Of a stretch of DNA of 64,000 bases, positions 36,440-57,929 are shown piece after piece (the first letter of the stretch is position 1; every line of letters begins with the position of its first letter). The stretch is from an uncultured Clostridia bacterium (GTDB lineage Bacteria > Bacillota > Clostridia > TANB77 > CAG-508), in assembly GCA_944386175.1 (NCBI GenBank), contig CALXAB010000001.1, positions 47,645-111,644 on the forward strand, in the 5' to 3' direction. The translations under genes and the position numbers were made by a program. The notes below the pieces were generated by a model. That model saw only the letters and a list, made by a program, of their open reading frames with translations. It was not told the origin of the DNA and made no database searches.

Positions 36440-36890
36440 ATTTTTTGATAATACAATTATATTATGCTGTTCTATAAAGTTCAATTCCCGTTTTTTTCCC
36501 TTTTTTCTATTTTAATTGATAAAGCGTTGACTTTTTAGTTAGTACACTAAGTAAACTTGTGTAAAAATTTTTTTAATTATTTTTTACTTTATTATTTTTG
36601 AGTTCACTTAGTGTACTTTTTGTTTTGTATTTAAAAACCTTAGTTCACTTAGTGAATAAAAAACTAACTTTCAAGTACACTTGGTGAACTTTTTCTTAAA
36701 AATCACTTATTTTTCGTTCATTTAGTGAACTTTTGCACTCTCAAAGGCATTTTTTAGCTGTTCATTCGGTGAATTTCCGCATCAAATTTGCTTAAAATTT
36801 TTGTTCTTTTGTTAACTCTTGAAGGCTTGTCCTTCAATGTGTATAGGCGATGTGTGCACACTCGCTTTCCTGCCTTTAGTATTGTTTTTT
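36440..36890 (-). repeat. R module, copy A
   Basis: Dyads at 36541-36557, 36601-36617, 36642-36658, 36674-36690, 36716-36730 and 36760-36774. Core and hairpin at 36812-36874. Ends 2 nt from the stop of the ABC gene. Confidence 0.85.
36456..36484 (-). promoter_or_regulatory. consensus sigma-A promoter of unit A'
   Basis: TTGAAC (36484-36479), 17-nt spacer, TATAAT (36461-36456). A terminator-like leader hairpin at 36403-36427 plus a T-run follows. Confidence 0.6.
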
Positions 36891-40379: not shown

Positions 40380-40505
40380 TTATATTTTTTCTCCAATATT
40401 TATTATATTTTTATATTACTTTTCATATTCTATCATAATTTTATTTCTTTCTCAATAAAATTATAAAGTTTCAAAATATATTTATCCTTACATTTGCTTA
40501 ATTAT

Positions 40506-40581
40506 GAAAAAATCCGCAATAGAAATAATGTCAAGAGCGAGTGATAATGAGTTTATTTACTCTTGATATTATTTTTATTGC
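40506..40581 (-). terminator. long conserved hairpin H (copy b) with T-run
   Basis: On the minus strand: GCAATAAAAATAATATCAAGAG - 22-nt loop - CTCTTGACATTATTTCTATTGC, then GGATTTTTTC. Confidence 0.65.
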
Positions 40582-40821
40582 AGATTAAATTTACCCTGCA
40601 AATGTATGAGGCAAAAAATAAGTATCAGTACATATCTACCGACACTTAAATTTATAAAGATTCTCTATTACTTATTTCATAAATTCTTTCTAGCAATTGA
40701 AATAACTGATAATTTTACATATCTACAATTAAACACAACCTATATATGTCATGCTTATCATAGACACAATCTCAAATTCCCTAGTATTTCAAACACTTCT
40801 ATCAATTTTCTAAAATTTAAT

Positions 40822-41004
40822 TTATGTGTTTCCACTTACCACATCTGCAACTACTTTAACTTTCACATCTGAATTTTGATGTTTTTCTCTTCCATATCTT
40901 CCTTTTTTCTCGAAAGTTATAATCTCTGAAAACATATCAAATTCAAGTATTACCTGTCCTGTTTTAGTTGTAGCACTGCCACACATTCCACATGTGTTGG
41001 TCAT
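40822..41004 (-). CDS. CxxC tail module of LSR B, in a separate overlapping frame
   Basis: MTNTCGMCGSATTKTGQVILEFDMFSEIITFEKKGRYGREKHQNSDVKVKVVADVVSGNT is homologous to the in-frame C-terminus of LSR C. Overlaps the end of LSR B by 41 nt. Confidence 0.5.
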   Translation of the reverse strand: MTNTCGMCGSATTKTGQVILEFDMFSEIITFEKKGRYGREKHQNSDVKVKVVADVVSGNT

Positions 41005-42679
41005 CTCTGGTTGCAGTAAGTTTTAAATGTTGTTTATCTCCTGTTGCAGTAAAATTGTCTTTACAATTTATTTCTGTTCCGTTTTTACAAATAAACCTTA
41101 TTGTATATGGATTTATTGTACCATTTTCTAATGTTTCCCCAATTATTACTTTCTCTATTATACATTCAAAAATATCTTTATCAAAATTTTTCATTATTTC
41201 CATATCTTTAAATAAACCTTTAAACTTGTTTAATCTATGTTTAATACTTTCATTTCTGTTTGTGTCTTTTAGTAGGTTTTGTATTTTCTGTTCTACTTTT
41301 AATAGTTCTATGTTTAGCTCATCATATTTTAAAGTATATTGTTCTTTATTTATTCTGCCTTCTAAGTTTAGTTCTAATAGATTATTAAGTTTCTTGTTTA
41401 TTTTCTCTTTGTCTTTTTCTAGCTTATTTACTACTGTTTCTGTAGTATTTTCTTTTAAGACATTTTCTATTTTTTCTAAAAAATCTTCTACTACTTTTTT
41501 ATTGTTGTTACAGAGTATTCTATATCCTTGTACAAAACAATCTTCTAGTATTTCTTCTGGTATTGCTTTACAGTATGGGCATTCTTCTTTTCCATGTTTT
41601 GCTCTTTTGATACATTGCCATACTGCTTTTTCATATTTTCTTTTTGAGTTCCAGTTTCTTCTTGTAAGTAAGCTACCACAAAATCCACAATATAATTTAC
41701 TACTAAAAGCATATTTCTTACTATAGTTATTATTTCTTCTTCCTGTTTCTCTTGTTCCTACTCGTTTTATTCTTATTTCTTGTACTCTATCAAATAACTC
41801 TTTACTAATAATTGGCTCATGATGTTCTTTTATATAATGCTTTTCTGCTTCTCCTAAATTGCTTAATCTTTTATGTGATATTGGATCTATTGTAAATGTT
41901 TTTCCCATTAGCACATCTCCAATATATTTTTCATTTTTTAGTATTCCTCTTATTGTTGATTCGTTCCAATTATCATTACCTTTTGGGGATTTAATGCCTT
42001 TTGCTTTTAGTTCTTTTGCTATTGTACTTGAACCTATTCCGTCTACATATCTTTCAAATATATATTTTATAACTTCTGCTTGTTCCTCATTTATAGTTAT
42101 CTGTTTTGTTATTAAATCATAGTTATAACCGTAACAACCATTATAGCCAATTAACTCTCCCCTGTCTTTCTTCATTTTTAGTCCAAGCAATACATGTGAA
42201 GATATGTTCTCACTTTCTTGTTGTGCCATAGCACTTAATACTGTTAGTAGCATTTCTCCTGTTCCTGATAGAGTATTTAGATTTTCTTCTTCAAATAAAA
42301 CTGCAATGTTCTTTTCTTTTAGCATTCTTACATATTTTAAAGTATCTAATGTGTTTCTAGCAAATCTTGATATGGATTTTGTTAAAATCATATCAAATTT
42401 TCCAGACATTCCATCTGTTATCATTTTCATAAAGTCTGTTCTTTTAAAATCTAATGTGCCACTTATAGATTCATCTGCATATATTCCTGCAAATTGCCAT
42501 TCAGATTTGCTATTGATTTTTTCATCATAATACTTTAATTGTGATTGGTAACTATTTAATTGTTCTTTATTTCCTGTACTAACTCTACAATATGCACATA
42601 CTCTTAATCTTTCTTTGATTGTTGTACCTGTTACTCTGTTAATTCTTCCGTTTGTTTTCTCTATGACTTGAATTTCCAT
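40964..42679 (-). CDS. large serine recombinase, unit B
   Basis: Resolvase catalytic domain (VCAYCRVSTGNKEQ, SISRFARNTLD), recombinase domain, zinc ribbon (CGFCGSLLTRRNW...CPYCK) and coiled coil. Confidence 0.9.
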   Translation of the reverse strand: MEIQVIEKTNGRINRVTGTTIKERLRVCAYCRVSTGNKEQLNSYQSQLKYYDEKINSKSEWQFAGIYADESISGTLDFKRTDFMKMITDGMSGKFDMILTKSISRFARNTLDTLKYVRMLKEKNIAVLFEEENLNTLSGTGEMLLTVLSAMAQQESENISSHVLLGLKMKKDRGELIGYNGCYGYNYDLITKQITINEEQAEVIKYIFERYVDGIGSSTIAKELKAKGIKSPKGNDNWNESTIRGILKNEKYIGDVLMGKTFTIDPISHKRLSNLGEAEKHYIKEHHEPIISKELFDRVQEIRIKRVGTRETGRRNNNYSKKYAFSSKLYCGFCGSLLTRRNWNSKRKYEKAVWQCIKRAKHGKEECPYCKAIPEEILEDCFVQGYRILCNNNKKVVEDFLEKIENVLKENTTETVVNKLEKDKEKINKKLNNLLELNLEGRINKEQYTLKYDELNIELLKVEQKIQNLLKDTNRNESIKHRLNKFKGLFKDMEIMKNFDKDIFECIIEKVIIGETLENGTINPYTIRFICKNGTEINCKDNFTATGDKQHLKLTATRDDQHMWNVWQCYN

Positions 42680-42881
42680 CTTTCCTCCGTTCCGCCTAGA
42701 GATAAAACTTAATAATTTTATTTTATAGAAAAGTGCATTTTAATGCATCTTTTCTATAAAACAAGGTTAATTTACCTATATTTGCCCGAGCTTTAGCTCG
42801 TGGCATTTGAGCCTAGAAATCTTTGATTTCGTTAAGGCTCAATTATCTTATATCATTTTTTAGATAAAAAGTAAATTGTTC

Positions 42882-43058
42882 TTACAAAAGTTTATAATCT
42901 TTTAAGATTTTTCTTTTTATTTCAATATATTCTGAATCTAGTATTAAGTTTTCTCTAAACAAATTATTTAAAAACAATAATTCCATGCTACAGTCTAGCA
43001 TATTATTATCTTTTAGTTGTTTAGAGTTATCTACTTCTATTTTATAATTATGTAGCAT
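42882..43058 (-). CDS. 58-aa conserved small ORF preceding the LSR (copy B)
   Basis: AAGGAG RBS. MLHNYKIEVDNSKQLKDNNMLDCSMELLFLNNLFRENLILDSEYIEIKRKILKDYKLL aligns with copies A and C. Confidence 0.55.
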   Translation of the reverse strand: MLHNYKIEVDNSKQLKDNNMLDCSMELLFLNNLFRENLILDSEYIEIKRKILKDYKLL

Positions 43059-43149
43059 GAAATTGCTCCTTTTCTTTAAATTTGAAAAGAAAAAGAACAA
43101 AGAAACTAGAATCTTTCTAATCCCTTTGCTCTTTCTCTTTCATACTACC

Positions 43150-43178
43150 ATTATATTATCGTGTTTTTATATAGTCAA
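43150..43178 (-). promoter_or_regulatory. consensus sigma-A promoter of unit B
   Basis: TTGACT (43178-43173), 17-nt spacer, TATAAT (43155-43150). Confidence 0.6.
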
Positions 43179-43199
43179 TTCCATTTTTATTCCCTCTTT

Positions 43200-43640
43200 T
43201 CTATTTTTGATATAATTCTAGTATCTAATTTTATAAGTACACTAAGTAAACTAAAAATTGTATAATTTTAAATTGCAGTTCACTTGGTGTACTAGAAAAA
43301 TATAACAAAAGTTCACTAAGTGTATTTGTAAATTTTGTTTTATTTTCACATTCACTTAGTGAACTAAATTCAAAAATATTATTCAATATCAAGTACACTT
43401 GGTGAACTTTTTCCCAAAATAAGTGAATTTTTTTAATTTTTTAATTCACCATTTTTAATTTTGAACGAAGAATAGCGGGTTTGAGCCAGTTCACCGAGTG
43501 AATTTTTACATCATATTTGCATAAAATTTTTGTTTTTTTATTAACTCTTGAAGGCTTGTCCTTCAATATGTATAGGCATTTTGTTAAGAATGCTATCCTG
43601 CCCTCATTTTCAATGAGGTATTTTGCTCTTAAAATGTACT
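43200..43640 (-). repeat. R module, copy B (diverged)
   Basis: Dyads at 43236-43252, 43277-43293, 43310-43326, 43350-43365, 43392-43408 and 43488-43504. Outward-facing half sites at 43422-43450. Core and hairpin at 43541-43603. Confidence 0.8.
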
Positions 43641-43685: not shown

Positions 43686-43769
43686 AAAAACAATGTGCTT
43701 TTAAAAATAAGTCAAGGTTGTGCGATAGCACATTTATTTAAACCTTGACTTGTTTTTATAAAGCACATT
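43686..43769 (-). terminator. long conserved hairpin H (copy c) after the ParB-like gene
   Basis: ~28-bp stem AATGTGCTTTATAAAAACAAGTCAAGGTT / AACCTTGACTTATTTTTAAAAGCACATT followed by GTTTTTCG (minus strand). Confidence 0.6.
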
Positions 43770-43788
43770 ATACTTTTCTAAAAGGATT

Positions 43789-45225
43789 TTAACTATTTAT
43801 AAAAAATTGAATTATTGCAAATATTCCCATATCTGAAATTGTTTTTATTGCATCTACATTAGCAATAACTTTATAAGGGTGATGAATTACTAAATCTAAA
43901 TAGTTTTTCATTCCTTCATTATTAAAACATGTCTCCCATGCTCTTGAAATAGTATCGTCATCAATAAGATTTTGTTTATCTATTGATATTTTATTTATAA
44001 TCTTCTCTAATCTCAAGTCCAAATTATTATTTGCAGATTTCCATTTTTCCCATTTTCCTTTGTTTATTAAAAAATAGATGCTTGATTGTTCTAATAATGA
44101 GCGGATTAAAAAGCAATATGATATTGGGTAATTTTTATATAAATTTCCAAATGATAAATGCTGAATTTCATAGCATAGATTTTTAATCCCTTTAGCTCTA
44201 TCATTACTATATTTTAGTTTGCTACAATTAATATTTTTAAATAAAATACTATTGTCTTTTCTTGTTAATCTGATTTTATTAAATGCTATACTTTCATTTA
44301 TTTTATTTTTTACTATTTCACTTTCATTGGCATTATTATGTTTTTCTTCTCTACCATTAGAAAATATCTTCATTTGTTCATTTTTATTTTCTAAATTTTC
44401 ATTTATTTTATCTTTGCTGTCAAACCTTTCACTAACATTATTTTCTATATTGCCATACAAATATTTTTCTATATTAGCATTATTTTTTATTGTGTTACTT
44501 GTAATCCTACCACTTACAATATCTTGAACAATTCGTAATACTTTCTTGTCTAATTCATTTATTGAAGACAATGGCATTAAAACATTGTTATTAAAAGAAA
44601 TATTCAGATATTCTTTACCAACTTTTGAAGAAACAATCTTTTCAAACTTATTTACTGAAAAATTATTGTCAACTCCATCAAATGCTTTTTTACAAAATCC
44701 TTGTAATTGTGAAAATATATTTTTTACTCCCATTTTATCTTCAAATCTTTTTATTGAAGCTGTATCCCATTTTAAAGCTCCTGTATCAGTTGTATGTACA
44801 TTTCTTATATATCCAGCACAATCTTCAAATGAAGTGGCCACATAACAAGGAATTTGAAAATATTCTTCTCCTTGAATTCCTGCACTCATTGCATATATGC
44901 TTCTTATTTGTGTATATGAAAAGTATTTAAAAGATTCTACCAATTTAGGATTTTTTAAGATTTTCATTGCTGTTAATCTTCTATTACCATCCCATGCCAC
45001 AAATTTTTCTTTTTTCTCATCATAAGTGACTGTAACTATTGATTGTGGATACCAACCATTTGTGTAAATATCACTAATTAACTTATGCATTGCCTTCGCT
45101 TCTTTAGAATTTCTCACCAATTGTTGCATTATAAAAAGTTCATCCGCTATCATAATTTGTGTATGTCTTGGATTCTCTGGATTTACTAATATTTTTTCTA
45201 TGTCTATTAGTTGATGTTCTCTCAT
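43789..45225 (-). CDS. ParB/Srx-fold N-terminal domain protein with a large uncharacterised C-terminal region
   Basis: ILVNPENPRH and VAWDGNRRLTAMKIL (ParB-like nuclease/NTPase motifs). GGGGGA RBS before MREHQL. Confidence 0.55.
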   Translation of the reverse strand: MREHQLIDIEKILVNPENPRHTQIMIADELFIMQQLVRNSKEAKAMHKLISDIYTNGWYPQSIVTVTYDEKKEKFVAWDGNRRLTAMKILKNPKLVESFKYFSYTQIRSIYAMSAGIQGEEYFQIPCYVATSFEDCAGYIRNVHTTDTGALKWDTASIKRFEDKMGVKNIFSQLQGFCKKAFDGVDNNFSVNKFEKIVSSKVGKEYLNISFNNNVLMPLSSINELDKKVLRIVQDIVSGRITSNTIKNNANIEKYLYGNIENNVSERFDSKDKINENLENKNEQMKIFSNGREEKHNNANESEIVKNKINESIAFNKIRLTRKDNSILFKNINCSKLKYSNDRAKGIKNLCYEIQHLSFGNLYKNYPISYCFLIRSLLEQSSIYFLINKGKWEKWKSANNNLDLRLEKIINKISIDKQNLIDDDTISRAWETCFNNEGMKNYLDLVIHHPYKVIANVDAIKTISDMGIFAIIQFFINS

Positions 45226-45294
45226 ATATAATTCCCCCATTTTTTACCTTATAAAGTCTTTCGTAAATCCCTCATCATTCTTAAGTATATTATT

Positions 45295-46791
45295 CTATTT
45301 TTTTGCAATATATTTTTGATTTTTAGTATTTGGTTTATCTGGTATAGTCATTTGCAATTTTCCACTATCTAATAATGGTCTCATGTATTTTAAATAGAAA
45401 TTTCTTCTGTCTTTTAATCCTAAATATGCCATTATTTCTTTTGTTGTTTTTGGTTCTCTACAAAATTCTAATATTTTATCTTGATGGGTATCTTGGTGGA
45501 TATCTTGGTGGGTTGTTGGTCGGTCTTTTATCTCATTTTCAAATCTATCATGTATAAATATTGTTGTAATAAAATAATCTCTTGTTTCATTTGTTTCAAA
45601 CTCTGGTTCTTTTGAGCCATTATTTTTCAATGCTCTTTTTATTTTTGGAATACCTGTATTTCTACCTTCTGTTAATTTTAATTCTTTTAAAAACTCTCCA
45701 ATTCTACGATTTCTATATTTTCTTGCTATCATATTTTTATCTTCAATTGATTTTTCGCTTATTGAACGGTCTGGTCCTGGATAACTTACAATATGAATTC
45801 TATCTTCCATTATTCTTACTTCTACTGGTTCCCTTACATCATATCCTCTATGATAAACTGCATTTACTAATGCTTCTTCTATTGCTTGATATGGATAATT
45901 AAAAAATCTTACAGCCTCCGCTTGTCCATCTATCTTTAAAATTTTTTCCATAATAACAGTATTTTTAATATATGTTAAAGCACTTTTTATCATAGTATCA
46001 ATAGGTCCTTTAAATATTTGCTCTGTCATATCATCACCTTCTGGACCGTTTCTTAAATCTACTACTTCTATTTGTGAATATGGAAAGAATTTTTGTGGCT
46101 CATCATTAAAAAACATTAACCCTACATTTAAAGGTTTCATATATTCTGGTGTTCCATCTACTATTCTCATACTTTTACATAAATCTATAAAACTCATTGT
46201 TTCGGATTCTTTTAATAGTTCACTCTTTATCTCATATAAGTAATTTTGAATTAGTGGTAGTTTTAAATCTTGAATTTGTGCCTCATGATTCATTCTATCA
46301 TCGAATGGTATTACTCTTGCCATATCATATAATTCTTTTTGCTCTACTTCTGTAGCTTTTACTGTACTGGACATTTTTCTAATATAATATGAATATCCTT
46401 TTGAAAAATCTTTATCTAGTGTTGTTGGACATTTGTATGGTCTATTCTGACCACCAAAACACCATACTACTAGTATATTTTTACCTTTATATTGAGCAAC
46501 ATCTACAATTGGTGTATAGGCTGGCTGTATCATTTTACATTTTGTTAGCAATTCTTTTTGAATTTTATCTATTTCAGATAATTGTAGCCCTTCAAAATCT
46601 TTCTTAGGTCTACCATTTGCTTCTTCAACACCTATTAAAATATATCCTCCACCCCAGTTATCTATATCATTTGCAAAAGCACAAATTGTATGTAATATTG
46701 GTTCTGGATTCCAGTTTCTCTTTAATTCTAATCTTGCATTTTCTACAATGTTTTCATTTAGTATATTTTCTATACTTGTAGGTAATCTCAT
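45295..46791 (-). CDS. AlbA_2 (Schlafen-like) + HATPase_c_4 + C-terminal wHTH protein
   Basis: ENARLELKRNW...FANDIDNWGGGYILIGVEE (AlbA_2) and EALVNAVYHRGY (ATPase-like). C-terminal wHTH-like tail. HQDIHQDTHQD repeat. Confidence 0.7.
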   Translation of the reverse strand: MRLPTSIENILNENIVENARLELKRNWNPEPILHTICAFANDIDNWGGGYILIGVEEANGRPKKDFEGLQLSEIDKIQKELLTKCKMIQPAYTPIVDVAQYKGKNILVVWCFGGQNRPYKCPTTLDKDFSKGYSYYIRKMSSTVKATEVEQKELYDMARVIPFDDRMNHEAQIQDLKLPLIQNYLYEIKSELLKESETMSFIDLCKSMRIVDGTPEYMKPLNVGLMFFNDEPQKFFPYSQIEVVDLRNGPEGDDMTEQIFKGPIDTMIKSALTYIKNTVIMEKILKIDGQAEAVRFFNYPYQAIEEALVNAVYHRGYDVREPVEVRIMEDRIHIVSYPGPDRSISEKSIEDKNMIARKYRNRRIGEFLKELKLTEGRNTGIPKIKRALKNNGSKEPEFETNETRDYFITTIFIHDRFENEIKDRPTTHQDIHQDTHQDKILEFCREPKTTKEIMAYLGLKDRRNFYLKYMRPLLDSGKLQMTIPDKPNTKNQKYIAKK

Positions 46792-46842
46792 CTTCTCACC
46801 TTTCTTTTTCAAATGTCCGTTTTTTCGGACTTATAAAATTTT

Positions 46843-47259
46843 TTATTTCATATAATCTCTAATTTTAAATAATAACTCATCATCTAATATCTCTGTTGAG
46901 GCAAAATTATTTAAAGTATTATTATCTTCCCAATCTATATCAAATAAATTTATCACTTTATCATATCTTGGGAAAGCATGATAATGAACAAATGGATCAT
47001 GCATCATCATAATCATATAATTAAACTTTATTGCTCCAAACCTGTCTCTACATAGTTCTTCATACCATTTTATTACTTTTGGAAATTCAGCACCTTCATC
47101 TTGTAACATTCCACTTACATTTTGTGTTTCTCTTTTCAATAAAATAACTACATCTCCTAATGTTGTTTGTTTTTGCCTAACACAAACAATCCAATACTTA
47201 AACTCTTTAATACAAAGTTCCTCTGGTCTAAATTTTTTCATAAATTCTAAATTGTCCAT
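46843..47259 (-). CDS. HIT-like protein (138 aa)
   Basis: FVHYHAFPRY resembles the HxHxHxx histidine triad. Motif-level call only. Confidence 0.4.
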   Translation of the reverse strand: MDNLEFMKKFRPEELCIKEFKYWIVCVRQKQTTLGDVVILLKRETQNVSGMLQDEGAEFPKVIKWYEELCRDRFGAIKFNYMIMMMHDPFVHYHAFPRYDKVINLFDIDWEDNNTLNNFASTEILDDELLFKIRDYMK

Positions 47260-47282
47260 TGATAAGACCTCCTCTTACATTT

Positions 47283-47922
47283 TTATTTTTTAAACATATC
47301 ATTTAAATTATGTGATATTAATTTTAAATTATCTATATTTTCCCCTTCAATAACATAAGGCGTACAATGTTGTATTTGCAATTCAAATACTCTTTCTCTT
47401 GGTTCAATCTTAAACATATTTAAAAATAAGCACCTTATTGCATGATAATGTGAGAATATTCCTATTGTTATATCATCATTAAAATCTAACGAATCAAGAA
47501 ATCTTTTACATCTTATACTAACATCAGTATAGTTTTCTCCTTTTGGTGCTTTTTGTACGAAATCTGTTCTAAATTTATTAAATTTTTCATCTGTAATATA
47601 TTCATTATATTCATTAGAAGCTAATAAATCCTTCTTTTCCTTCAAATATTCCTAAACATCTTTCTCTTAAATCTTTACTTAAATTTAGTTCATATCCTGG
47701 TTTAGCTAATTTTGCTGTTTGTATTGCTCTCATTAAATCTGAAGAATAAACTTTTTTAATACTTTTAATAATATCATTTTTTGCTAAAATACTTGCTTGA
47801 TTCTTTCCTTATTCTGTTAAACTCGTCAATTCATTATCTAAAGTTCCTGTGTATAAAGCTGTTCCTTCATCATTTATCACGTTTGCCATTGTTTGTCCAT
47901 GTCTAATTATAACTATTCTCAT
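47283..47922 (-). pseudogene. histidine phosphatase (phosphoglycerate-mutase-like) gene with a nonsense codon and a frameshift
   Basis: MRIVIIRHGQT starts at 47922. In-frame TAA at 47809-47811. The C-terminal part (GENYTDVSIRCKRFL...FSHYHAIRCL) is in another frame (ORF 47283-47645). Confidence 0.75.
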
Positions 47923-48506
47923 TAATTGTTACCTTCCTTTTTATTCTTTATTGTTTCAATATATTCTTTAACATATGCGTTCATATCTCTATCAAATAGT
48001 TCTTTTGAATATTCTAATCTTAATAGTTCTTCTCTTAAGATTGGCAAATATACTTCTATAATTTCATCTAACGCCTCTGGTTCTTCTTCAATACATCTTT
48101 TCCATCTATTTTTTCCGATATAAGCAATTTTGTCTGCATCTCTTACAATTTTTCCTTCAACTGTTGGAGGAATACATTTTCTCTTATGATTTACTACTGC
48201 TGAATAACATTGTTCTATTATTTCATTACTATAACTTAACTTTTCCATTTCTTCTTTTAGAATTCTTCCGCTTTCTTCTTCATGTCCTTTATCTGTAACA
48301 GACCTTCCAACATCATGCCAATATGCAGCTATAATACATATTTCTTTATTAGCTGGTATCTCTTCTAATAATTCTTTTACATAGTTTACGACATCAATAG
48401 TATGACCTATAAAATGTAGAGGATCATTTTCACATACTTTCATTTTTTCTATAGCTATATCAATTAATTTTTTATTTTTATTATATATTTCTTCGTAAAT
48501 ATCCAT
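47922..48506 (-). CDS. HD-domain phosphohydrolase
   Basis: FIGHTIDVVNYV and AAYWHDVGR (H...HD motif). Confidence 0.7.
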   Translation of the reverse strand: MDIYEEIYNKNKKLIDIAIEKMKVCENDPLHFIGHTIDVVNYVKELLEEIPANKEICIIAAYWHDVGRSVTDKGHEEESGRILKEEMEKLSYSNEIIEQCYSAVVNHKRKCIPPTVEGKIVRDADKIAYIGKNRWKRCIEEEPEALDEIIEVYLPILREELLRLEYSKELFDRDMNAYVKEYIETIKNKKEGNN

Positions 48507-48680
48507 TCTATCTAAATTCTCCCTATCTCTATTCTTTTATATTTTGACCATATTTTACCATAAAACAATAAAAAAATAAAGCATATAACAAATTAAATTA
48601 TTACATACTTTACCTTTCAAGTTTTATCTCCAAACATTTTTATTTTTCGTTGACAAATCGTTGACATTATCAACAAGAAA

Positions 48681-50573
48681 TTATACTACTCCGCACACCA
48701 TGTCAACTTCTATCGTTACTTTAATTTTATGATTTTCTGTTCTTTTAACCTTATTTTTGCCTTTTCTATCAAAACTAATAAAATCTTCAAAAGCAGTAAA
48801 TTGGGCTATTGTATCGAATCTTTCAGACATAGCACCGAGCAACACTCCACATGGCTCACACCCAGTCTGTAGATAGTTTTGGCTTACCTCGTATGATGAC
48901 TGTTGCAAACTACCTTGATTTTTATCTTTTTGACATTTGATTTCGTTTCCAGATTTTAGGATAAATGTTATTACTCTTGGATTTACATCTCCATTTTGTT
49001 CTTTTTCTCCTATTATAACTTTTTCTATCATTAATTCAAAAACATCTTTATCAAATGTTGGCATTATTTCATCATCTTTAAATAGACTTTTAAACTTGTT
49101 TAATCCTTGATTTAAACTAATTGAATCTTCTAACTCTAGTTGTAAATGTTCTTGCTCTTTTTCTATTTTGTTTATCTTGTTTTGTAATTTTGCCTTTTTA
49201 TCTTTTAATGTTTCAAGTGTTATTGTTCCATTCAAGTTTAAATCAATTAACTTGTCTATCTTTTCTTTTAAAGTTTGTTTTTCTTCTTCTAATTTTTTAA
49301 TAGAACTTTCATTACTTTCTTCTTGTATGATTTCTTCCATTTGTTTTAAGAATGTTTTGATTAGTTTTTTGTTATTATTACATAAAAGTTTATAACTTTC
49401 TGTAAATGCTTCTTCTATAATGTTTTCTTTCATTGCTTTACAATATGGGCAATTTTCTTTTCCATGTTTTACAAATTCCATACAATGCCATACCGTAATA
49501 CTATTTTTTGTTCCAGAGTGCCAGTTTCTTCTTGTTAATAAACTTCCACAAAAACCACAATATATTCTACTACTAAAAGGATATTTTCTGCTAAAGTTTC
49601 CTTTTCTTCTTCCAGAGCCTCGTACTCCTCCTCGCTTTTGTAATATTTCTTGTGCTTGATTAAACATTCTTTCTGAAATAATTGGTTCATGATGTTCTTG
49701 TATGTAATACTGATTTTCTTCTCCCATATTGACTACTCTTCTATGTGAGATTGGATCTGTTGTATATGTTTTTCCTTGTAAGACATCTCCTTTGTATTTT
49801 TCGTTTTTCAAAATACCTCTTATAGTTGAGTCATGCCATTGTTTCTTTCCTGTTGGTGTTTTATATTTCATAGCAGTTAGTTCTTTTGCAATTGTTGTGC
49901 AACCTACTCCTTGACAGTATCTTTCAAAGATATATCTTACTATTTCTGCTTCTTGATAATTTACTGATATTTTCTTTGTTTCTTTATCATATACATATCC
50001 TAAACATCCATTATATCCAATTAATTCTCCTCTTTTTTGTTTCATCTGTAATCCTAGTTTTACATGAGAAGATATATTTTCGCTCTCCTGCTGTGCCATT
50101 GCACTCATTACTGTTAGCATTACTTCGCCAGATAATTCTAAAGTATTGATGTTTTCTTCTTCAAAATAAATAGTGATTCCTTTTTCCTTTAATAATCTTA
50201 CATACTTTAAAGTATCTACTGTATTTCTTCCAAATCTTGATATTGATTTTGTAATTATCATGTCAAATTTGTTTTCTGTTGCATCTTGCATCATTCTCAT
50301 AAAGTTATCTCTTTTATAGTCAAGTGTTCCTGTTATCCCTTCATCTGCATAAATCCCTACATAAGTCCAATCACTTCTTGATTTTATTTTTTCTTCATAA
50401 TATTTTAGCTGAGAATTATAACTATTTATTTGTTCTTCTTTTTCTGTACTAACTCTTGCATAGGCACATACTCTTAAATTGCCTTTTATAACTTCTCCTG
50501 TTGTTCTATTAATTCTTCCTTTTTTCTTCTCTATTACTTGTACTTTCAAAATTAACCTCTCTTTCTCAAGCAT
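48681..50573 (-). CDS. large serine recombinase, unit C, with an in-frame C-terminal CxxC tail
   Basis: VCAYARVSTEKEEQ, SISRFGRNTVD, CGFCGSLLTRRNW...CPYCK and a coiled coil. About 90 extra C-terminal residues are homologous to ORF 40822-41004. Confidence 0.9.
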   Translation of the reverse strand: MLEKERLILKVQVIEKKKGRINRTTGEVIKGNLRVCAYARVSTEKEEQINSYNSQLKYYEEKIKSRSDWTYVGIYADEGITGTLDYKRDNFMRMMQDATENKFDMIITKSISRFGRNTVDTLKYVRLLKEKGITIYFEEENINTLELSGEVMLTVMSAMAQQESENISSHVKLGLQMKQKRGELIGYNGCLGYVYDKETKKISVNYQEAEIVRYIFERYCQGVGCTTIAKELTAMKYKTPTGKKQWHDSTIRGILKNEKYKGDVLQGKTYTTDPISHRRVVNMGEENQYYIQEHHEPIISERMFNQAQEILQKRGGVRGSGRRKGNFSRKYPFSSRIYCGFCGSLLTRRNWHSGTKNSITVWHCMEFVKHGKENCPYCKAMKENIIEEAFTESYKLLCNNNKKLIKTFLKQMEEIIQEESNESSIKKLEEEKQTLKEKIDKLIDLNLNGTITLETLKDKKAKLQNKINKIEKEQEHLQLELEDSISLNQGLNKFKSLFKDDEIMPTFDKDVFELMIEKVIIGEKEQNGDVNPRVITFILKSGNEIKCQKDKNQGSLQQSSYEVSQNYLQTGCEPCGVLLGAMSERFDTIAQFTAFEDFISFDRKGKNKVKRTENHKIKVTIEVDMVCGVV

Positions 50574-50616
50574 AGAGAATCTTTATGTTTGTATTATATA
50601 TTAAAATCTTATATTT

Positions 50617-50802
50617 TTAAATACCTATATGAGTTAAATCATATTCTTTTAAAATATTTTGTTTTAGTTCTAAATATCTTTCCTCTTTAATTAGTCCTGC
50701 ATTATATGTTTTATTTAGAATTGCTATTTTAATGCTACAATTAAAAATATTTTCATTTAGTTTTACATTTTTCGTATTATCAAATTTTACTTCGTACAAC
50801 AT
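50617..50802 (-). CDS. 61-aa conserved small ORF preceding the LSR (copy C)
   Basis: AGGGAGAA RBS. Same protein as copy A apart from a few substitutions. The 105-aa form in the ORF track would run through the leader hairpin and promoter. Confidence 0.6.
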   Translation of the reverse strand: MLYEVKFDNTKNVKLNENIFNCSIKIAILNKTYNAGLIKEERYLELKQNILKEYDLTHIGI

Positions 50803-50905
50803 AAAAATTCTCCCTTGCTTAAATAAAATTTCAAAAAAGAGCAATAGAAAAAGCCAGTCGGCTAGCTTCGACTGACTTCTTTGTCTGACATTTTTTGATA
50901 ATACG

Positions 50906-50934
50906 ATTATATTATGATGTTCTATAAAGTTCAA
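50906..50934 (-). promoter_or_regulatory. consensus sigma-A promoter of unit C
   Basis: TTGAAC (50934-50929), 17-nt spacer, TATAAT (50911-50906). A leader hairpin AGTCAGTCG..CGACTGGCT at 50852-50878 plus TTTTT follows. Confidence 0.6.
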
Positions 50935-50939
50935 TTCCC

Positions 50940-51355
50940 GTTTTTTTCCCTTTTTTCTATTTTAATTGATAAAGTGTTGATTTTTTAGTTAGTACACTAA
51001 GTGAACTTGTGTAAAAATTTTTTTAATTATTTTTTACTTTATTATTTTTGAGTTCACTCGGTGTACTTAGTTTTTTATTATATCAATTTTTAGTACACTT
51101 AGTGAACTAATTATAAATTATTTCATAAAATTTAGTACACTTGGTGAACTTTTTCTTAAAAATTACTTATCTTTCGTTCATTTAGTGAACTTTCACACTC
51201 TAAAAGAGATTTTTTAGTCATTCATTCGGTGAATTTTTGCATCAAATTTGCTTAAAATTTTTGTTCTTTTATTAACTCTTGAAAGCTTGACCTTCAATGT
51301 GTATATGCGTTGCGTGATGCACGCTATCCTGCCTTTAGTGTTCACTTTATATCCT
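50940..51355 (-). repeat. R module, copy C
   Basis: Dyads at 50991-51007, 51051-51067, 51092-51108, 51134-51150, 51176-51190 and 51220-51234. Core and hairpin at 51272-51333. Abuts the stop codon of the 617-aa gene. Confidence 0.85.
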
Positions 51356-53209
51356 TTAATTAGTATTAGATTCTGATGTAGTTTTATTTACAACACCCAA
51401 GTTCTTAATACTATCTTGTAAACTTTCATCTGGAATAAAGTTTCTACAATTTTCTAATTTATAAAATTCCCCTAATTTATCTATATCTTTATATAAGAAA
51501 TAAAAATAGTTTTTTAATGCATTTTCTGTTGTTTCTAATCTAGGTCTTAATGAGTATGCTCTTTTCTTCTTATAGAAATAGTTTTCATTAAATAATTTAT
51601 ATAAATTATTTAGTTCATCACTATCTAATGTTATTTTGTGAAATCTCGTTTCTTTGAAAATATAATTTATTTTATCAATGTCTATATTTAAATCATCAAC
51701 ATATTCTCTAATGTTATTCTTGCTTATTATAGTTATTATAGATAATGTAATACTCATAATTATATAATCCATAAATTCTTTTGATAAATTCATTGTCCTA
51801 AATATTTTTATTGATCTAATATCATTGTTTTCAATCATTTTTAAAAACATTATAATGATTGGTTCACCCTTTATAAGATATGGTATAAATATTTCTTCTT
51901 CATGTATATTTTTTCTTTGCAGAAAATCATTAATACTTCTATCTGGAAATTTTTCCCTATGTTCCATTAATCTAATATTATCGTATAATTCTTCTAGTAC
52001 TCTGTACTTTTCATTTTTAGTTAAATTCTTATTTTCAATAACACATGTATATACAGATTCTAAATATCTATTACTAGTAAACATATATATAGAATCATAT
52101 TTATATAATCTACAATAGCTAAAATCTATAACATTTTCATATAGAAAAATTAAATACATATCTAATTTAATAATTCTCCATACAAGATTTATATATTCTT
52201 TTTCTTGACTTTCAGTTTGAATATATTTTATTTTATCTATTAAATTTGCAATATTTTGCATTTTATAATCATCATGAACAGGCACAAATTCATAATAAGC
52301 AAACATTGTATAAAGTTTACAATATATATTTGCAGCCTCTATATGTTTATTATATAAAATCAAATGCGAAACTATTTCATGTATAGCACTAATCAAATCA
52401 CTTCTAAAAATCATTTCTGTATAATATTCTTGAAGAATTTTTTTGTTATTAAATAAAGTTAAATCTATAAGATTCATTATGTTGTGAATATTATAATTAT
52501 AATCATTATCATTTTTTTGTATTAATACTAATGTTTGATTCTTTAAGTCTGTGATATCTTTGCACCCATGGCTATTTAGAGGAATCGCCTTTTTTATATG
52601 CTTCTTTTGTTTCTCTAAATACATACATAGTAAACTGTTTCCAAACCAATTTTTATGAGTGTAAAACCAAATCATTTTAATACACATATAAAATATAACT
52701 ACAAGAGAAAGCAAAAAATTTATTAATATTAGTATTTGACTACTGCCTTTTAGGCATTGTATAATATTTACAAATAATAGGAGAACTAAAATTATAAAAA
52801 TTTTTAGCAATGATAAAAAACTATTGTTAGGGAAAATAACATTAATATGTTTTTTTCCCAATATATAACTTTCAGACAACCCAGATAATAAAGATATTAC
52901 TGAAATTATTATCAATGTATTACTAATTTGAGCTACTAATATATCATTTGAATCAATGTTAAATTCTTTATTCAAGTCTAATATATTTTCAATTTTGTAA
53001 TCATTAATAGCATAAAAAATTACAAACATACTAAATATAACTATACTAAACATAAAAATAATCATTAAAAAATTCATAATTTTTTGTTTAACTACAAAAT
53101 ATTTTTTATTATCATATATTTTATACCATTTTAAAAATTCTTTTATTTTATAATTTTTATTTAAAATAAATCTTCTTATTTTTTTTAATTTACCATTAGA
53201 ATCTTCCAT
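51356..53209 (-). CDS. 617-aa membrane protein of unknown function, downstream of AbiEii
   Basis: About five N-terminal TM helices, then a ~400-aa soluble region with no motif I recognise. Lies 56 nt after abiEii. Confidence 0.55.
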   Translation of the reverse strand: MEDSNGKLKKIRRFILNKNYKIKEFLKWYKIYDNKKYFVVKQKIMNFLMIIFMFSIVIFSMFVIFYAINDYKIENILDLNKEFNIDSNDILVAQISNTLIIISVISLLSGLSESYILGKKHINVIFPNNSFLSLLKIFIILVLLLFVNIIQCLKGSSQILILINFLLSLVVIFYMCIKMIWFYTHKNWFGNSLLCMYLEKQKKHIKKAIPLNSHGCKDITDLKNQTLVLIQKNDNDYNYNIHNIMNLIDLTLFNNKKILQEYYTEMIFRSDLISAIHEIVSHLILYNKHIEAANIYCKLYTMFAYYEFVPVHDDYKMQNIANLIDKIKYIQTESQEKEYINLVWRIIKLDMYLIFLYENVIDFSYCRLYKYDSIYMFTSNRYLESVYTCVIENKNLTKNEKYRVLEELYDNIRLMEHREKFPDRSINDFLQRKNIHEEEIFIPYLIKGEPIIIMFLKMIENNDIRSIKIFRTMNLSKEFMDYIIMSITLSIITIISKNNIREYVDDLNIDIDKINYIFKETRFHKITLDSDELNNLYKLFNENYFYKKKRAYSLRPRLETTENALKNYFYFLYKDIDKLGEFYKLENCRNFIPDESLQDSIKNLGVVNKTTSESNTN

Positions 53210-53265
53210 ATTTTGCTCCCATTTTCATATATTCATTTAATTATTCTATGTATGTAGTTATTAGA

Positions 53266-54111
53266 TTATTTTTTTAATTCATTCTTTATTTCTTCTAATA
53301 CTCCCATCGTATCTTCATAATTAATATCTTCTGCATAACTAAATTTAGATTGATAATTCTTCCAATGCTCTTTCAGAACATCACTTTCTTTTATAACTTC
53401 CATTATCTCATTTATATTATTTAATTTATCCATTGAACCTCTATATTCAAATTTCTTCAATATAGCTTGTCCTAATAATTCTTTATTAAAATTTTGTTGT
53501 TGAGTAGTCCATAATATATAAATATCATAAAAATCTCTCGCTCTTGTAGTATCTATATTTCTTGATATAATTGTTTCAAATTTATCAGCTATTACTGTTT
53601 CCATATTATATGCTAATATTTCTATTGAACGATTTTCAAACATTAAATCGAACTTATAATTTACTTCTTTTGGAACAATTACATCTCCTGTTGTTATATC
53701 TAATTTCATTGGTACAACTAACTTATCAAATTTAGCATCTAAAGCTACTCTGTATCCTCCATATTCATCTTCTTGTCTTATTTCTTTTATACTTCTAAAT
53801 TCAAATGCTACTCCATCATCTAAATCTATATTAAAAATTTCATTTAAGATATTTTCAAGATTATCCTTTTCTAAATCAAATCCTTTTATCGTTGCATCCA
53901 TATCAAGAGTATTTCTCATGTCTATTCCAACTATTGCTGTTATTAACATTCCTCCTTTTAATACAAATTTATATTTGTATTTTGATACCGAAATTCTTTC
54001 CAATAGTCTTTCTAGCATATAGTTTTGTAAAATAATGTTTTCATTCACATCTACTTTATCTGACATATTCTTTATCCATGCTTTTAATTGTGCTCTATTT
54101 TTTGCTATCAC
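53266..54111 (-). CDS. AbiEii/AbiGii-family nucleotidyltransferase toxin (third locus, intact)
   Basis: FVLKGGMLITAIVGIDMRNTLDMDATIKG nucleotidyltransferase core. 281 aa. Overlaps the abiEi stop by 4 nt. Confidence 0.8.
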   Translation of the reverse strand: MIAKNRAQLKAWIKNMSDKVDVNENIILQNYMLERLLERISVSKYKYKFVLKGGMLITAIVGIDMRNTLDMDATIKGFDLEKDNLENILNEIFNIDLDDGVAFEFRSIKEIRQEDEYGGYRVALDAKFDKLVVPMKLDITTGDVIVPKEVNYKFDLMFENRSIEILAYNMETVIADKFETIISRNIDTTRARDFYDIYILWTTQQQNFNKELLGQAILKKFEYRGSMDKLNNINEIMEVIKESDVLKEHWKNYQSKFSYAEDINYEDTMGVLEEIKNELKK

Positions 54112-54701
54112 AATAACACCTCCAAGTATTTTCTTACTTCATCTTCAATATTAAATAATTTTGCATATTTGTGTAGTTTAATAGAGTTTCTATCTTTTCT
54201 TTCAGCATATCTTTTCATCGCATCTGTAAATAAGGCAATTTCTATTTTTTTCTTATTTCTGATAATGTCACATATTGTTCTCTCTAAATCATAAACTTTA
54301 ACTTTGTTTCCATATGGTGTATTCATTTCTATTATTCCTAATTCATATAATTCATCTTTTAAATAGAAAAATTGATAGTTTCTATCTTTTAGTAATTTAG
54401 TATTATAGTAACTAGGTATAGTCAATTGATATTTTATGGGAGTTCTATCACATAAATCATGAAAATACAAAGCTGTCTCATGAGAGAATATCCCTTTTTT
54501 ACAAATTGCTTGTGTGATAAAATAATTATCTTCAAATGTATCTGCTCCAATATATACTCCTCTTGCTACTCTATCTATCAATCCCTTTTCTATCATCCTT
54601 GTTAAAATCTTATTATTTATCCCAATATCTTCTACTTGATATGTTTCAATCACTCCATTATTATTTTTTAATAATTTTTCTACTTTTTCTATATCATCCA
54701 T
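54108..54701 (-). CDS. AbiEi-family antitoxin (third locus)
   Basis: NNGVIETYQVEDIGINNKILTRMIEKGLIDRVARGVY wHTH region. Paralog of 13551-14141. Confidence 0.75.
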   Translation of the reverse strand: MDDIEKVEKLLKNNNGVIETYQVEDIGINNKILTRMIEKGLIDRVARGVYIGADTFEDNYFITQAICKKGIFSHETALYFHDLCDRTPIKYQLTIPSYYNTKLLKDRNYQFFYLKDELYELGIIEMNTPYGNKVKVYDLERTICDIIRNKKKIEIALFTDAMKRYAERKDRNSIKLHKYAKLFNIEDEVRKYLEVLL

Positions 54702-54716
54702 AAATTTTCTCCTTTG

Positions 54717-54761
54717 CCGTTTTCATTCGTAAATATTATATCATTTACGAATAAAAACGGC
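54717..54761. promoter_or_regulatory. inverted repeat upstream of abiEi-3 (candidate operator)
   Basis: GCCGTTTTCATTCGTAAAT - 7 nt - ATTTACGAATAAAAACGGC, 16 nt upstream of the start codon. Confidence 0.5.
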
Positions 54762-54810
54762 AACAATATTTAAAAAATTAATAGCACAAAATTAAAATTT
54801 GTGCTAAAAT

Positions 54811-55296
54811 CTAACTTTCAAAGTAAAATGCTAACCTTGAATTATTTCTAATATATTTCTCCTCAAAATTATTATTTGTAAAATTTTTTATAGTCTTTCT
54901 CCAAAATTTTTGAGCTCTTTCATTTTTTAATAATGTTCTAACTTCCCATTTTCCTTTATATAACTCAAACATTTTATTTGCCATATATGTACCTGCTCCC
55001 ATTTTTCTATACTTGTTAAGAATAAAAAATTCAGCTATTTCGTTCATATTTTCTTCATTAAATCTATGTAAAACAAAACCTGCTAATTCATTATCACATT
55101 TTAATATATATGGATGTCTATTTTCTTCTTGCCAGTATCTTTCAACATATTTATTCATTACATATAATCCAGAATCTAGCATTGTAAATGTTGCTGTCTC
55201 ATCTTCAAAAAAGCTAAGCTCATATGTATATAATTGCATTAAATTATATATTATATTTTTGTCTTTTTCATCAACTTTTATTAAATCAAATCTCAT
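54811..55296 (-). CDS. GNAT family N-acetyltransferase
   Basis: FFILNKYRKMGAGTYMANKMF (motif A). Confidence 0.7.
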   Translation of the reverse strand: MRFDLIKVDEKDKNIIYNLMQLYTYELSFFEDETATFTMLDSGLYVMNKYVERYWQEENRHPYILKCDNELAGFVLHRFNEENMNEIAEFFILNKYRKMGAGTYMANKMFELYKGKWEVRTLLKNERAQKFWRKTIKNFTNNNFEEKYIRNNSRLAFYFES

Positions 55297-55325
55297 TTTC
55301 TTCTCCTTATTTAAATAATAAAAAA

Positions 55326-55949
55326 CTATTTTTCAATTTCATTATCATATATACTTTTATATTCTTCAAACTTAGCCTTTGCTCTTGGTAGTCCTGCATC
55401 CACTGCCATCTTTAAATAATATTCTGATAATCTTAAATTTTTCTCTGTTCCAACTCCATTATAATAAAAATTTGCTCCTAAATCATAAATTGCTGGAAGA
55501 TGTCCTTGTATTGCACAGTCATGTATTAATTCAAATGCTTTCTTTTCATCTCTTTCAATATTTCCAAATCCAAAATAGTAATAAGCTCCTAAACAAAATT
55601 TTGAAAATGCTTGTCTTCTCGGTGTTTCTTGTTCTTCATTTATAAGACTTAATAGTGATTCATAAGCCTCAATATGTATCTGTTTTGCTTTTTCTTTATC
55701 TTGTTCCACTCCATCTCCAAAATGATAGCAAGCACCAACTCCATATGCACAACGAGGATCTCCTAAGTCTTTTCCTTTTTCATACCAGTACATTGCTTTT
55801 TCAAAACTTTGCTCTGCTCCATTTTCTTGACTATCATAACTTCTTCCTAGAATATAGCACGCAAGTCTATCTCCATTTTTAGCTTTCATTTCTAAATCTT
55901 CTATGTTAAATATCATTGGCTTTATTATATTATTCACTTTTAGCTTCAC
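55326..55949 (-). CDS. Sel1-repeat (TPR-like) protein
   Basis: Repeated Sel1 units: AxxWYxKGxDLGDPRCAYGVGACYHFGDGVEQDKEKA. Confidence 0.75.
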   Translation of the reverse strand: MKLKVNNIIKPMIFNIEDLEMKAKNGDRLACYILGRSYDSQENGAEQSFEKAMYWYEKGKDLGDPRCAYGVGACYHFGDGVEQDKEKAKQIHIEAYESLLSLINEEQETPRRQAFSKFCLGAYYYFGFGNIERDEKKAFELIHDCAIQGHLPAIYDLGANFYYNGVGTEKNLRLSEYYLKMAVDAGLPRAKAKFEEYKSIYDNEIEK

Positions 55950-56481
55950 CTAATTTCTTTAATAAAATATATCTTTTTATATTTTCATCTTTTTTATACC
56001 AAGTTTGTTCCTCATATCCTAAGTCTTTTAAATTTCTTAAACTATAAATATTTCCAAAAGTTACTTCTGCAATAATGTTACTTATTCCTTTTTCTTTAGC
56101 CCTTCCTTCAAGATATTTTACTAATGTTTTCTGTAATCCATATCCTCTATACTCTGGTAATACAATAACTCCATCTATATCAGCACAATTACCTTTGATA
56201 TTTGTAATCATTTGCTTTAATTCTTTCATTCTGCTTGAAACTGATAAAAAAATCCATGCAATCATTTTATTATCTATAAAAGCACCATATATCTCTCCAT
56301 CATTTATAGGGTTGTTTAATATCCTTAAATATGTTTCTTTTTTAAAAGGTAAAAAATAACCTTTTTCCTCCTCTTTAAAATTATCTATTACAATATTTTG
56401 AATATTATATATGTCATCAACGTCATTCGAATTGCATTTTCTAATTTTTAGTTTTTCCTTAGAAAATTGATTAATTTCCAT
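55930..56481 (-). CDS. GNAT family N-acetyltransferase
   Basis: VLPEYRGYGLQKTLVKYL (motif A). Confidence 0.7.
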   Translation of the reverse strand: MEINQFSKEKLKIRKCNSNDVDDIYNIQNIVIDNFKEEEKGYFLPFKKETYLRILNNPINDGEIYGAFIDNKMIAWIFLSVSSRMKELKQMITNIKGNCADIDGVIVLPEYRGYGLQKTLVKYLEGRAKEKGISNIIAEVTFGNIYSLRNLKDLGYEEQTWYKKDENIKRYILLKKLGEAKSE

Positions 56482-56498
56482 ATTTTAATTCACCTTCG

Positions 56499-57494: not shown

Positions 57495-57500
57495 TAATAT

Positions 57501-57833: not shown

Positions 57834-57929
57834 ATTCTATTCTCCTAATCTTTACTGTATATAATATATCATAAATTCCTTAATTTTACAATGAAATCGC
57901 CAATATTTTAATATTACATATATCTTTAC

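Follow-up and report, generated by a model that had tools for sequence, protein, structure and literature searches.

Two predicted defence genes in the exchangeable slot of a large serine recombinase unit, next to unrelated small hydrolase genes, in an uncultured gut Clostridia bacterium

Do five small genes that ride together on a mobile unit act as one system, or do they share no more than a carrier? We addressed this question for a cargo block of an uncultured Clostridia bacterium (GTDB lineage TANB77; CAG-508), which lies in a stretch of 64,000 nucleotides (nt) of contig CALXAB010000001.1 (positions 47,645 to 111,644). This stretch is hereafter called the window; its GC content is ~25% and nearly all of its genes are found on the minus strand. 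A first-pass annotation had described the block as five co-oriented, tightly spaced genes on a unit of a large serine recombinase (LSR) and had proposed their combination as a candidate nucleotide-targeting defence or element-maintenance module. The described layout was confirmed: sandwiched between two LSR genes, five minus-strand open reading frames (ORFs) encode, in the order of transcription, an HD/HDIG phosphohydrolase (47922-48506, 194 amino acids (aa)), a decayed histidine phosphatase (47283-47922), a divergent HIT-superfamily protein (46843-47259, 138 aa), a Schlafen protein with AlbA_2, HATPase_c_4 and winged helix-turn-helix (wHTH) domains (45295-46812, 505 aa) and a ParB/HEPN protein (43789-45240, 483-aa ORF). 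The intergenic gaps measure 54, 30 and 23 nt, and the stop codon of the HD gene meets the start of the phosphatase pseudogene. We read this block as a mosaic, composed of an LSR-borne trio of hydrolases and an inserted pair of self-contained, RNase-type defence genes that would act in the manner of abortive infection, and assign this reading a probability of about 0.58.

A two-gene insert in the terminal slot of the unit

The division of the block into two layers is based on the comparison with two further loci, L076 and L077 (L numbers denote the comparative loci throughout), which show the gene order LSR, HD, intact phosphatase, HIT-like (93% identity), dCMP deaminase and second LSR. L076 aligned to window positions 50548-46841, from the LSR through the HIT-like gene, with 83.5% nucleotide identity, and L077 to positions 48583-46841 with 96.8%. 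Both loci align again at 43789-42838 with 85% identity, and L076 continues from there through the second LSR to 40797 with 92%. Since the alignments break at 46840-43790, the Schlafen and ParB/HEPN pair occupies exactly the slot that is taken by the deaminase in L076 and L077.

The constant end of this slot is marked by a long hairpin on the minus strand (43690-43771; −35.9 kcal/mol, z −8.4), which is probably a terminator. The same hairpin follows three different terminal genes at a distance of 0-10 nt, namely the ParB/HEPN gene, the dCMP deaminase gene of L076 and a 618-aa GHKL+HSDR_N_2 gene of L036. At the junctions (window 46841 and 43789; L076:6419-6851; L036:7516), the exchange is precise at the level of single ORFs. 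In the proposed arrangement, the HD, phosphatase and HIT-like genes would represent the backbone cargo of this LSR type, and the 3.05-kb stretch with the two remaining genes (46840-43790) would be an insert in the swappable terminal slot of the unit. More generally, these findings show that LSR-delimited units of these genomes end in a slot where entire ORFs, defence genes among them, are precisely exchanged.

For the backbone trio, the domain calls of the first-pass annotation turned out to be correct, also with regard to the decayed phosphatase and the HIT-like fold. The HD protein matched PF01966 (E 7e-13) and TIGR00277 (HDIG). The open frame of the phosphatase gene (47283-47645, 120 aa) holds only the C-terminal half of PF00300 (positions 99-182), and the N-terminal half with the RHG motif (MRIVIIRHGQT...) was recovered by three-frame translation directly upstream (47646-47922). 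As the two halves are separated by one in-frame stop followed by one frameshift, this gene is a pseudogene; an intact orthologue of 183 aa is present in L076/L077. The HIT-like protein gave nothing in Pfam, and a profile of 27 relatives, searched against the PDB, retrieved 2oik (9.7e-6), 3imi (2.5e-4) and 1y23 (0.034). Its segment FVH92YH94AFPRY aligns on the histidine triad with Phe replacing the first His, and a complete HxHxHxx triad was not found (F-V-H92-Y-H94-A-F); H92 and H94 are invariant among the relatives. Distant relatives reside in ordinary chromosomal neighbourhoods, among ThyX, NrdD, GNAT, NUDIX and similar genes.

When scored with PADLOC, in which names denote homology and not tested function, the Schlafen and ParB/HEPN proteins were recognised, whereas the phosphatase and the HIT-like protein gave no meaningful match, the HD protein gave weak Cas3-HD matches only, and the dCMP deaminase of L076 gave none. 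The earlier suggestion that several of these folds recur in defence islands is upheld for two of the five genes, whose families have an experimental anti-phage precedent, and finds no support for the HD, phosphatase and HIT-like genes. From their domain content, the latter three, of which the phosphatase is dead in this genome, appear to encode small enzymes that hydrolyse nucleotides or phosphoesters; they accompany this LSR type and carry no defence signature.

These results bear directly on the idea of a single nucleotide-targeting defence or maintenance module comprising all five genes. In its favour are the co-orientation and tight spacing of the genes and the fact that all five folds act on nucleotides or nucleic acids; in addition, L016 again combines an HD gene (80% aa identity) with a ParB/HEPN gene, and the trio with its dCMP deaminase in L076 is reminiscent of nucleotide-depletion defences. 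However, one of the five members is a pseudogene, trio and pair separate cleanly in L076/L077 where the deaminase replaces the pair, and a small hairpin lies between the HIT-like and the Schlafen gene. Moreover, HIT-like and phosphatase genes were found at none of the other ParB/HEPN loci examined, an HD homologue occurs near ParB/HEPN elsewhere in L016 only, and both the miscellaneous surroundings of the HIT-like relatives and the PADLOC results for the trio and the deaminase speak against a shared defence function. The five-gene module is thus already largely refuted by the comparative data, and we consider it highly improbable. For annotation, this means that the block is not to be named one system. 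The HD homologue of L016 is located downstream of the ParB/HEPN gene (88% identity) at a distance of 557 nt, with no LSR in between (L016:491-3068), and represents another permutation of these genes. A nucleotide-depletion defence formed by HD and deaminase proteins, comparable to dGTPase and dCTP deaminase, was considered as well and rejected, because the PADLOC defence models gave no support.

The Schlafen and ParB/HEPN proteins

In the first of the two inserted genes, PF04326 (54.2 bits), PF13749 (50.0 bits) and the Fic-like_C wHTH family PF21247 all scored above their gathering thresholds. Its relatives begin with MKLPTS, which makes the ATG at 46791 the probable start. The Ex4(E/D)xK motif, defined as catalytic for prokaryotic Schlafens (Perez Taboada et al. 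2026, PMC13056530), is present as E24-NARL-E29-L-K31. The combination of PF04326 and PF13749 has been named the "Schlatpase" supradomain (Kuzmenko et al. 2026, preprint on SLFN-pAgo, 10.64898/2026.05.29.728809), and PADLOC aligned the window protein to the N-terminal part (55-429) of an SLFN-pAgo-type model. An EEALVN box at residues 312-317 is a candidate for the N-box with the Glu and Asn that bind ATP in GHKL proteins, as it resembles, at the level of the motif, the residues E314/N318 reported for RzAgo. With PF04326, PF13749, a C-terminal HTH and the Ex4ExK motif, the window protein shares the features of the pSlfn/Schlatpase proteins, but unlike SLFN-pAgo and the protective Schlafens, it has no Argonaute, Ig-like or DUF262 sensor. 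We thus classify it, on its domain architecture, as a standalone Schlatpase-HTH prokaryotic Schlafen. The forms Slfn-HisKinase (34%) and Slfn-HisKinase-HTH (19%) are the commonest among prokaryotic Schlafens (PMC13056530). The locus provides a natural example on which this most common, as yet unvalidated architecture could be tested. Across genomes, the core of the protein (aa 1-425) is 84-94% identical, and the last ~70 aa, which form the wHTH, belong to at least four types; the corresponding 3' end of the gene (45295-45520) is swapped across the window, L007, L023 and L036-L047.

For the second gene, the first-pass annotation had given a length of 478 aa, a ParB/Srx N-terminal domain and an unknown C-terminal two-thirds. 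The length is supported by the homologues, which start at M6 (probable start 45225), and the N-terminal assignment stands as well, while the C-terminal part can now be resolved: the protein consists of a ParB/Srx domain (~1-150), a helical middle region (~160-263), a disordered linker (265-328) and a HEPN fold (333-483; ORF numbering). The AlphaFold2 model, built on 48 homologues, reached a mean predicted local distance difference test score (pLDDT) of 76 and a predicted template modelling score (pTM) of 0.41, the low value of the latter being due to the flexible linker. It shows an N-terminal alpha/beta domain with the ParB/Srx fold and a well predicted C-terminal helical domain with the four-helix fold of HEPN proteins. 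The ParB/Srx assignment is backed by the segments NPENPR (20-25) and DGNRRLTA (84-91), which correspond to ParB boxes. The latter contains the arginine-rich motif (D/E)-G85-N-R-R88-x-x-A, a putative nucleotide-binding motif of the GxxRxxA or GERR-like kind, whose residues G85, N86, R87 and R88 do not vary among 124 family members. In the alignment of these 124 proteins, which includes remote relatives, the invariant or near-invariant positions comprise N23, R25, H149 and W158 besides the GNRR residues in the N-terminal domain, and E358, R380, E384 and H453 in the C-terminal domain.

Pfam, including ParB_N, remained blank for this protein even at E ≤ 10, NCBIfam gave nothing, and sequence and profile searches against the PDB gave nothing useful. 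A relative of the window clade was not found in a scan of IMG/VR, and a search of BFVD retrieved only ParB/DUF262-type proteins. At E ≤ 1e-3, the family counts 2118 cluster representatives, most of which are full length and measure 440-560 aa. A set of 124 homologues of ~470-500 aa each was obtained, with identities of 38-96%.

These numbers also argue against the view that the inserted cargo is decaying and non-functional, with ORFs that are intact by chance only. This view can point to the dead phosphatase, to the large internal deletions observed in many metagenomic Schlafen copies and to L001, which retains only a remnant of the Schlafen gene. Both ORFs of the window, however, are full length and contain every residue and motif that is invariant in their families, and the ParB/HEPN relatives keep a constant length despite their wide range of identities. 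We therefore regard loss of function as improbable.

The closest experimentally studied relative of the ParB/HEPN protein is component A of PD-lambda-5. The window protein matched 20 PADLOC models of PD-Lambda-5_A, the best with an E value of 8e-43 (residues 6-434) and another covering residues 12-469. PD-lambda-5 was discovered in E. coli ECOR7, where it is listed as "ParB/HEPN, methyltransferase" in a supplementary table and described as a compacted restriction-modification and abortive infection (RM+Abi) system that protects broadly and was cloned in a host lacking mrr (Vassallo et al. 2022). Like PD-lambda-5 A, the window protein combines a ParB/Srx domain, a low-complexity linker and a HEPN-like domain, and it is likewise encoded on mobile DNA. 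The invariants GNRR, R380/E384 and H453 are common to the window protein and the A proteins of Burkholderia and of a Vibrio phage, the latter two of which also carry the same FR(V/S)LLE and xxxVH/AAH elements. Identity to the proteobacterial A proteins is ~22%, and tblastn and hhalign cover the N-terminal half only. As hhalign against single proteobacterial A proteins aligned just the N-terminal ~220-260 residues, the homology of the C-terminal part rests on the PADLOC profiles and the shared motifs. Proteins of 372-373 aa from Yersinia phage HQ103 and Vibrio campbellii, which appeared "A-like", match the ParB part only and have other partners; they were not used as references.

The window locus differs from PD-lambda-5 in its partner gene and in its host, which is a low-GC gut Clostridia lineage. 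In the reference pair of Burkholderia multivorans (L087), component A (494 aa, 1000 bits) is encoded 18 nt ahead of component B (298 aa), a Dam-like D12 N6-adenine methyltransferase (PD-Lambda-5_B E 6e-116, PF02086). A tblastn search with this B protein retrieved homologues beside a distant ParB/HEPN gene (L081) and in Vibrio (L088), but neither the 64-kb window nor any of the Clostridial ParB/HEPN loci L001-L035 gave a match at E ≤ 10. The upstream neighbour in the window is the Schlafen-ATPase gene instead, whose product has no match to the PD-Lambda-5_B models. With component A present and B absent, the window contains an orphan A-like gene rather than a PD-lambda-5 system. What appears to be new, although modest, is a methyltransferase-less Clostridial clade of PD-lambda-5 A with non-canonical HEPN residues, which spans at least 124 protein clusters and 20 GTDB loci from human-gut Clostridia. 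If this clade is active, ParB/HEPN would be an autonomous effector and the methyltransferase an add-on, which would sharpen mechanistic work on PD-lambda-5.

Self-contained genes or a cooperating pair

The scan of GTDB species-representative genomes yielded 20 ParB/HEPN loci, all from uncultured gut Clostridia, and the gene is solitary in most of them. An intact Schlafen gene is located directly upstream in L007/L008 and L023, and a 112-aa C-terminal Schlafen remnant in L001-L003/L017. In L016/L018, homology to the window runs from the stop codon of the Schlafen gene (45294-45296) to that of the ParB/HEPN gene, and the Schlafen gene itself is absent. Further neighbours of ParB/HEPN were HEPN/MNT pairs, a prophage tail module and an integrase-primase island. 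Directly upstream of ParB/HEPN, L024 (7390-7929), L025 (1735-2274) and L031 (1178-1873) share an ORF of ~180-230 aa, for which no family match was obtained; an LSR gene lies immediately downstream in these loci. Conversely, a census of 40 metagenome loci with Schlafen relatives (63-94% identity, most ≥ 75%) included ~19 with enough downstream sequence, and ParB/HEPN followed in two of them (L040, L063). The alternative downstream neighbours were DUF4297+HerA, a GHKL+HSDR_N_2 protein, a YaaC-like protein, a TPR protein and DUF6847. Overall, the two genes were found paired in about five contexts, but most copies of either gene lack the other.

This distribution has to be weighed against the possibility of a single cooperative system composed of the Schlatpase-HTH and ParB/HEPN genes. 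Such a system would be a variant of PD-lambda-5 that works independently of a methyltransferase, with the Schlafen protein and its swappable wHTH taking over as sensor, regulator or second effector. The order and orientation of the pair and a junction of 41-55 nt recur in the window, L007/L008, L023, L040 and L063, whose flanking contexts are unrelated, and the Schlafen remnants of L001-L003/L017 fit the same picture. In addition, the ParB/HEPN clades differ in the wHTH type that accompanies them, which is type 1 for clade I (window, L040) and type 2 for clade II (L007, L023; 49-50% identity to the window protein). A terminator-like site was not found between the two genes, and the strong hairpin comes after ParB/HEPN. 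A validated precedent also exists for the combination of a Schlafen nuclease with a domain of the ParB/Srx superfamily in a single chain (DUF262-Slfn EcoSlfn7, PMC13056530). On the other hand, the upstream Schlafen gene is absent in ~15 of the 20 species-level ParB/HEPN loci and ParB/HEPN is absent in ~17 of the 19 close Schlafen relatives, both wHTH types occur also without ParB/HEPN, and unrelated, non-Schlafen sequence is found upstream of the solitary ParB/HEPN genes. The observed linkage could also reflect inheritance as a block inside defence hotspots.

Based on the wHTH types seen without ParB/HEPN, the Schlafen-less loci L016/L018 and the mostly unpaired copies, we rate independence of the two genes above cooperation, which we regard as a real but minor possibility. 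Should it apply, the Schlafen gene and a methyltransferase-independent ParB/HEPN branch might constitute a new two-gene RNA-targeting defence system, with the matched wHTH and ParB/HEPN alleles as a co-evolving specificity module and a non-canonical E/R/E/H site; we put this forward tentatively. In either case, the linkage of the ParB/HEPN clade to Schlatpase-HTH and LSR genes seems to be recurrent but non-obligate, which is a new, modest observation.

Within the favoured mosaic of a hydrolase trio and two self-contained defence genes, each inserted gene would have its own mode of action. HEPN effectors are generally reported to act as dimers, and N-terminal domains of the ParB type dimerise on binding of nucleoside triphosphates. 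Taken together, this implies that a nucleotide-driven engagement could assemble the HEPN site: the ParB/Srx domain would be a switch or sensor that binds nucleotides or nucleic acids, and the HEPN fold would be the effector, whose assembled site would cause growth arrest or abortive infection. In the Schlafen protein, ATP-driven oligomerisation may activate the Ex4ExK site as a tRNase, and the wHTH would be the variable recognition part.

Several points weigh against this reading. The recurrent junction and the co-variation of wHTH type and ParB/HEPN clade argue against full independence of the two genes. A canonical HEPN Rx4-6H motif was found nowhere in the ParB/HEPN protein, so that RNase activity is not assured; a string of this type occurs in the last 170 aa of only 34 of the 124 relatives. 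The window protein thereby differs from HEPN toxins such as HepT/MNT, the C-terminal domain of AbiA and Csm6; its conserved residues E358, R380, E384 and H453 are located on different helices, and a cognate antitoxin gene is absent from the locus. If the domain is catalytic, these four residues would form a non-canonical active site. PD-lambda-5 has been validated only as the two-gene A+B pair in E. coli (Vassallo et al. 2022), and A without B may not defend. With respect to the Schlafen protein, seven Enterobacterales systems from four architectures, HisKinase fusions included, have been tested, and the two protective ones were DUF262 and Ig-like fusions (PMC13056530). An anti-phage activity is consequently a prediction for the standalone GHKL-HTH Schlafen as well as for the methyltransferase-less ParB/HEPN clade. 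Finally, the comparative loci are all metagenome-assembled genomes or metagenome contigs, and the counts are small. Taking these points into account, we still interpret the locus as a probable defence islet of known gene kinds in the swappable slot of an LSR unit, beside unrelated small hydrolases.

Recombinase units, their leaders and candidate boundaries

The two LSR genes that enclose the block are both encoded on the minus strand. The cargo-carrying unit has an LSR of 630 aa (48681-50573) with Resolvase, Recombinase and Zn_ribbon_recom domains; the LSR of the next unit (40964-42679, 571 aa, identified by Pfam) is 91.6% identical at the nucleotide level to the second LSR of L076. The sequence upstream of the second LSR (42680-43602) is homologous to that upstream of the first (50574-51333). 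As such leaders lie at both ends, the cargo belongs to a unit of roughly 51333-43603. The leader of the next unit (43237-43602, no strand assigned), which forms the downstream cargo boundary, comprises six phased 15-bp palindromes and an element of ~105 bp, and homologous leaders were found at 50992-51333, 36542-36874 and 20109-20307. The palindrome, GTWCACYNRGTGWAC, occurs in 18 copies in the window compared to 0.02 expected by chance. Its copies cluster with a phasing of ~41 bp at 20109-20164, 36542-36730, 43237-43503 and 50992-51190, each time in the leader of an LSR-type unit, and probably serve as operator arrays or as arrays bound by the recombinase or a recombination directionality factor. 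The ~105-bp element contains a CCTCATTGAAAATGAGG hairpin, heads each leader (20195-20307, 36769-36874, 43498-43602, 51229-51333) and recurs in other genomes (L023:9643-9755, L036:7705-7867); Rfam gave no match for it. Scanning the complete window for Rfam families and tRNAs gave no match, and the unit leaders are thus not known RNAs or tRNA targets. Promoter-like matches (59 compared to 59.0 in the shuffled expectation) are uninformative in DNA of 25% GC.

The leaders are relevant for a further explanation, in which the ParB-like protein would act on behalf of the mobile unit. It could do so by partition or DNA bridging of the excised circle, an alternative already raised in the first-pass annotation, or as the HEPN toxin of an addiction module. 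In L024, L025, L031 and L040, the ParB/HEPN gene is followed by an LSR gene at a distance of 90-160 nt, LSR genes are also close to it in L004 and the window, the palindromes are located just downstream of the gene, and the ParB-like domain with the helical middle region resembles the NTD-HTH (N-terminal domain and helix-turn-helix) arrangement of Noc and KorB. With ParB, Noc and KorB, the protein shares the ParB/Srx fold, the NPxxPR box and a GNRR motif at the position of GERR. In contrast to the CTPase clamps of ParABS systems, however, it carries a HEPN fold in place of a C-terminal dimerisation domain, Pfam ParB_N is silent, a dedicated parS is lacking, and ParA was not found among the Pfam-scanned ORFs (40964-42679 and 43789-63194). 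The palindromes were rejected as parS because they are present in all four LSR-unit leaders; no ParB/HEPN ORF is located near the clusters at 20.1 kb and 36.5 kb, and L076 aligns with 85% identity across the leader stretch of the window although it has no ParB/HEPN gene. Most ParB/HEPN homologues are not adjacent to an LSR, and the homology of the protein to a component of a defence system speaks against this explanation as well. Partition by this protein is therefore not upheld, and a role in serving the unit appears very unlikely overall.

Two kinds of repeats are candidate attachment (att) sites or unit boundaries. A 24-bp core (TAGCAC..CCACATG) is located at or inside the 3' ends of LSR genes (40971-40994, 48830-48853, 58514-58537), and the last ~58 aa of the 630-aa LSR are encoded beyond the copy at 48830-48853. 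Furthermore, a direct repeat of ~600 bp (40469-40994 and 57907-58537, 83-89% identity) brackets 17.5 kb. A matching stretch of 176 bp is present in L018, downstream of the gene for a tRNA-U5 methyltransferase. The C-terminal tail of the LSR (aa 573-630) was also found alone in other genomes (L036:2287-2527, L036:7939-8149, L037:2306-2481), and L047:348-695 encodes a 115-aa fusion of the first ~50 aa of the LSR and this tail, suggestive of a scar left by deletion or excision.

An ORF of 617 aa (51356-53209) immediately upstream of the unit leader encodes a protein with long hydrophobic stretches that gave zero matches in Pfam, NCBIfam and PADLOC. The neighbouring unit contains a pair of genes for an AbiEi antitoxin and an AbiEii nucleotidyltransferase toxin (53266-54701), which is followed by GNAT, Sel1 and APH genes at 54811-57494.

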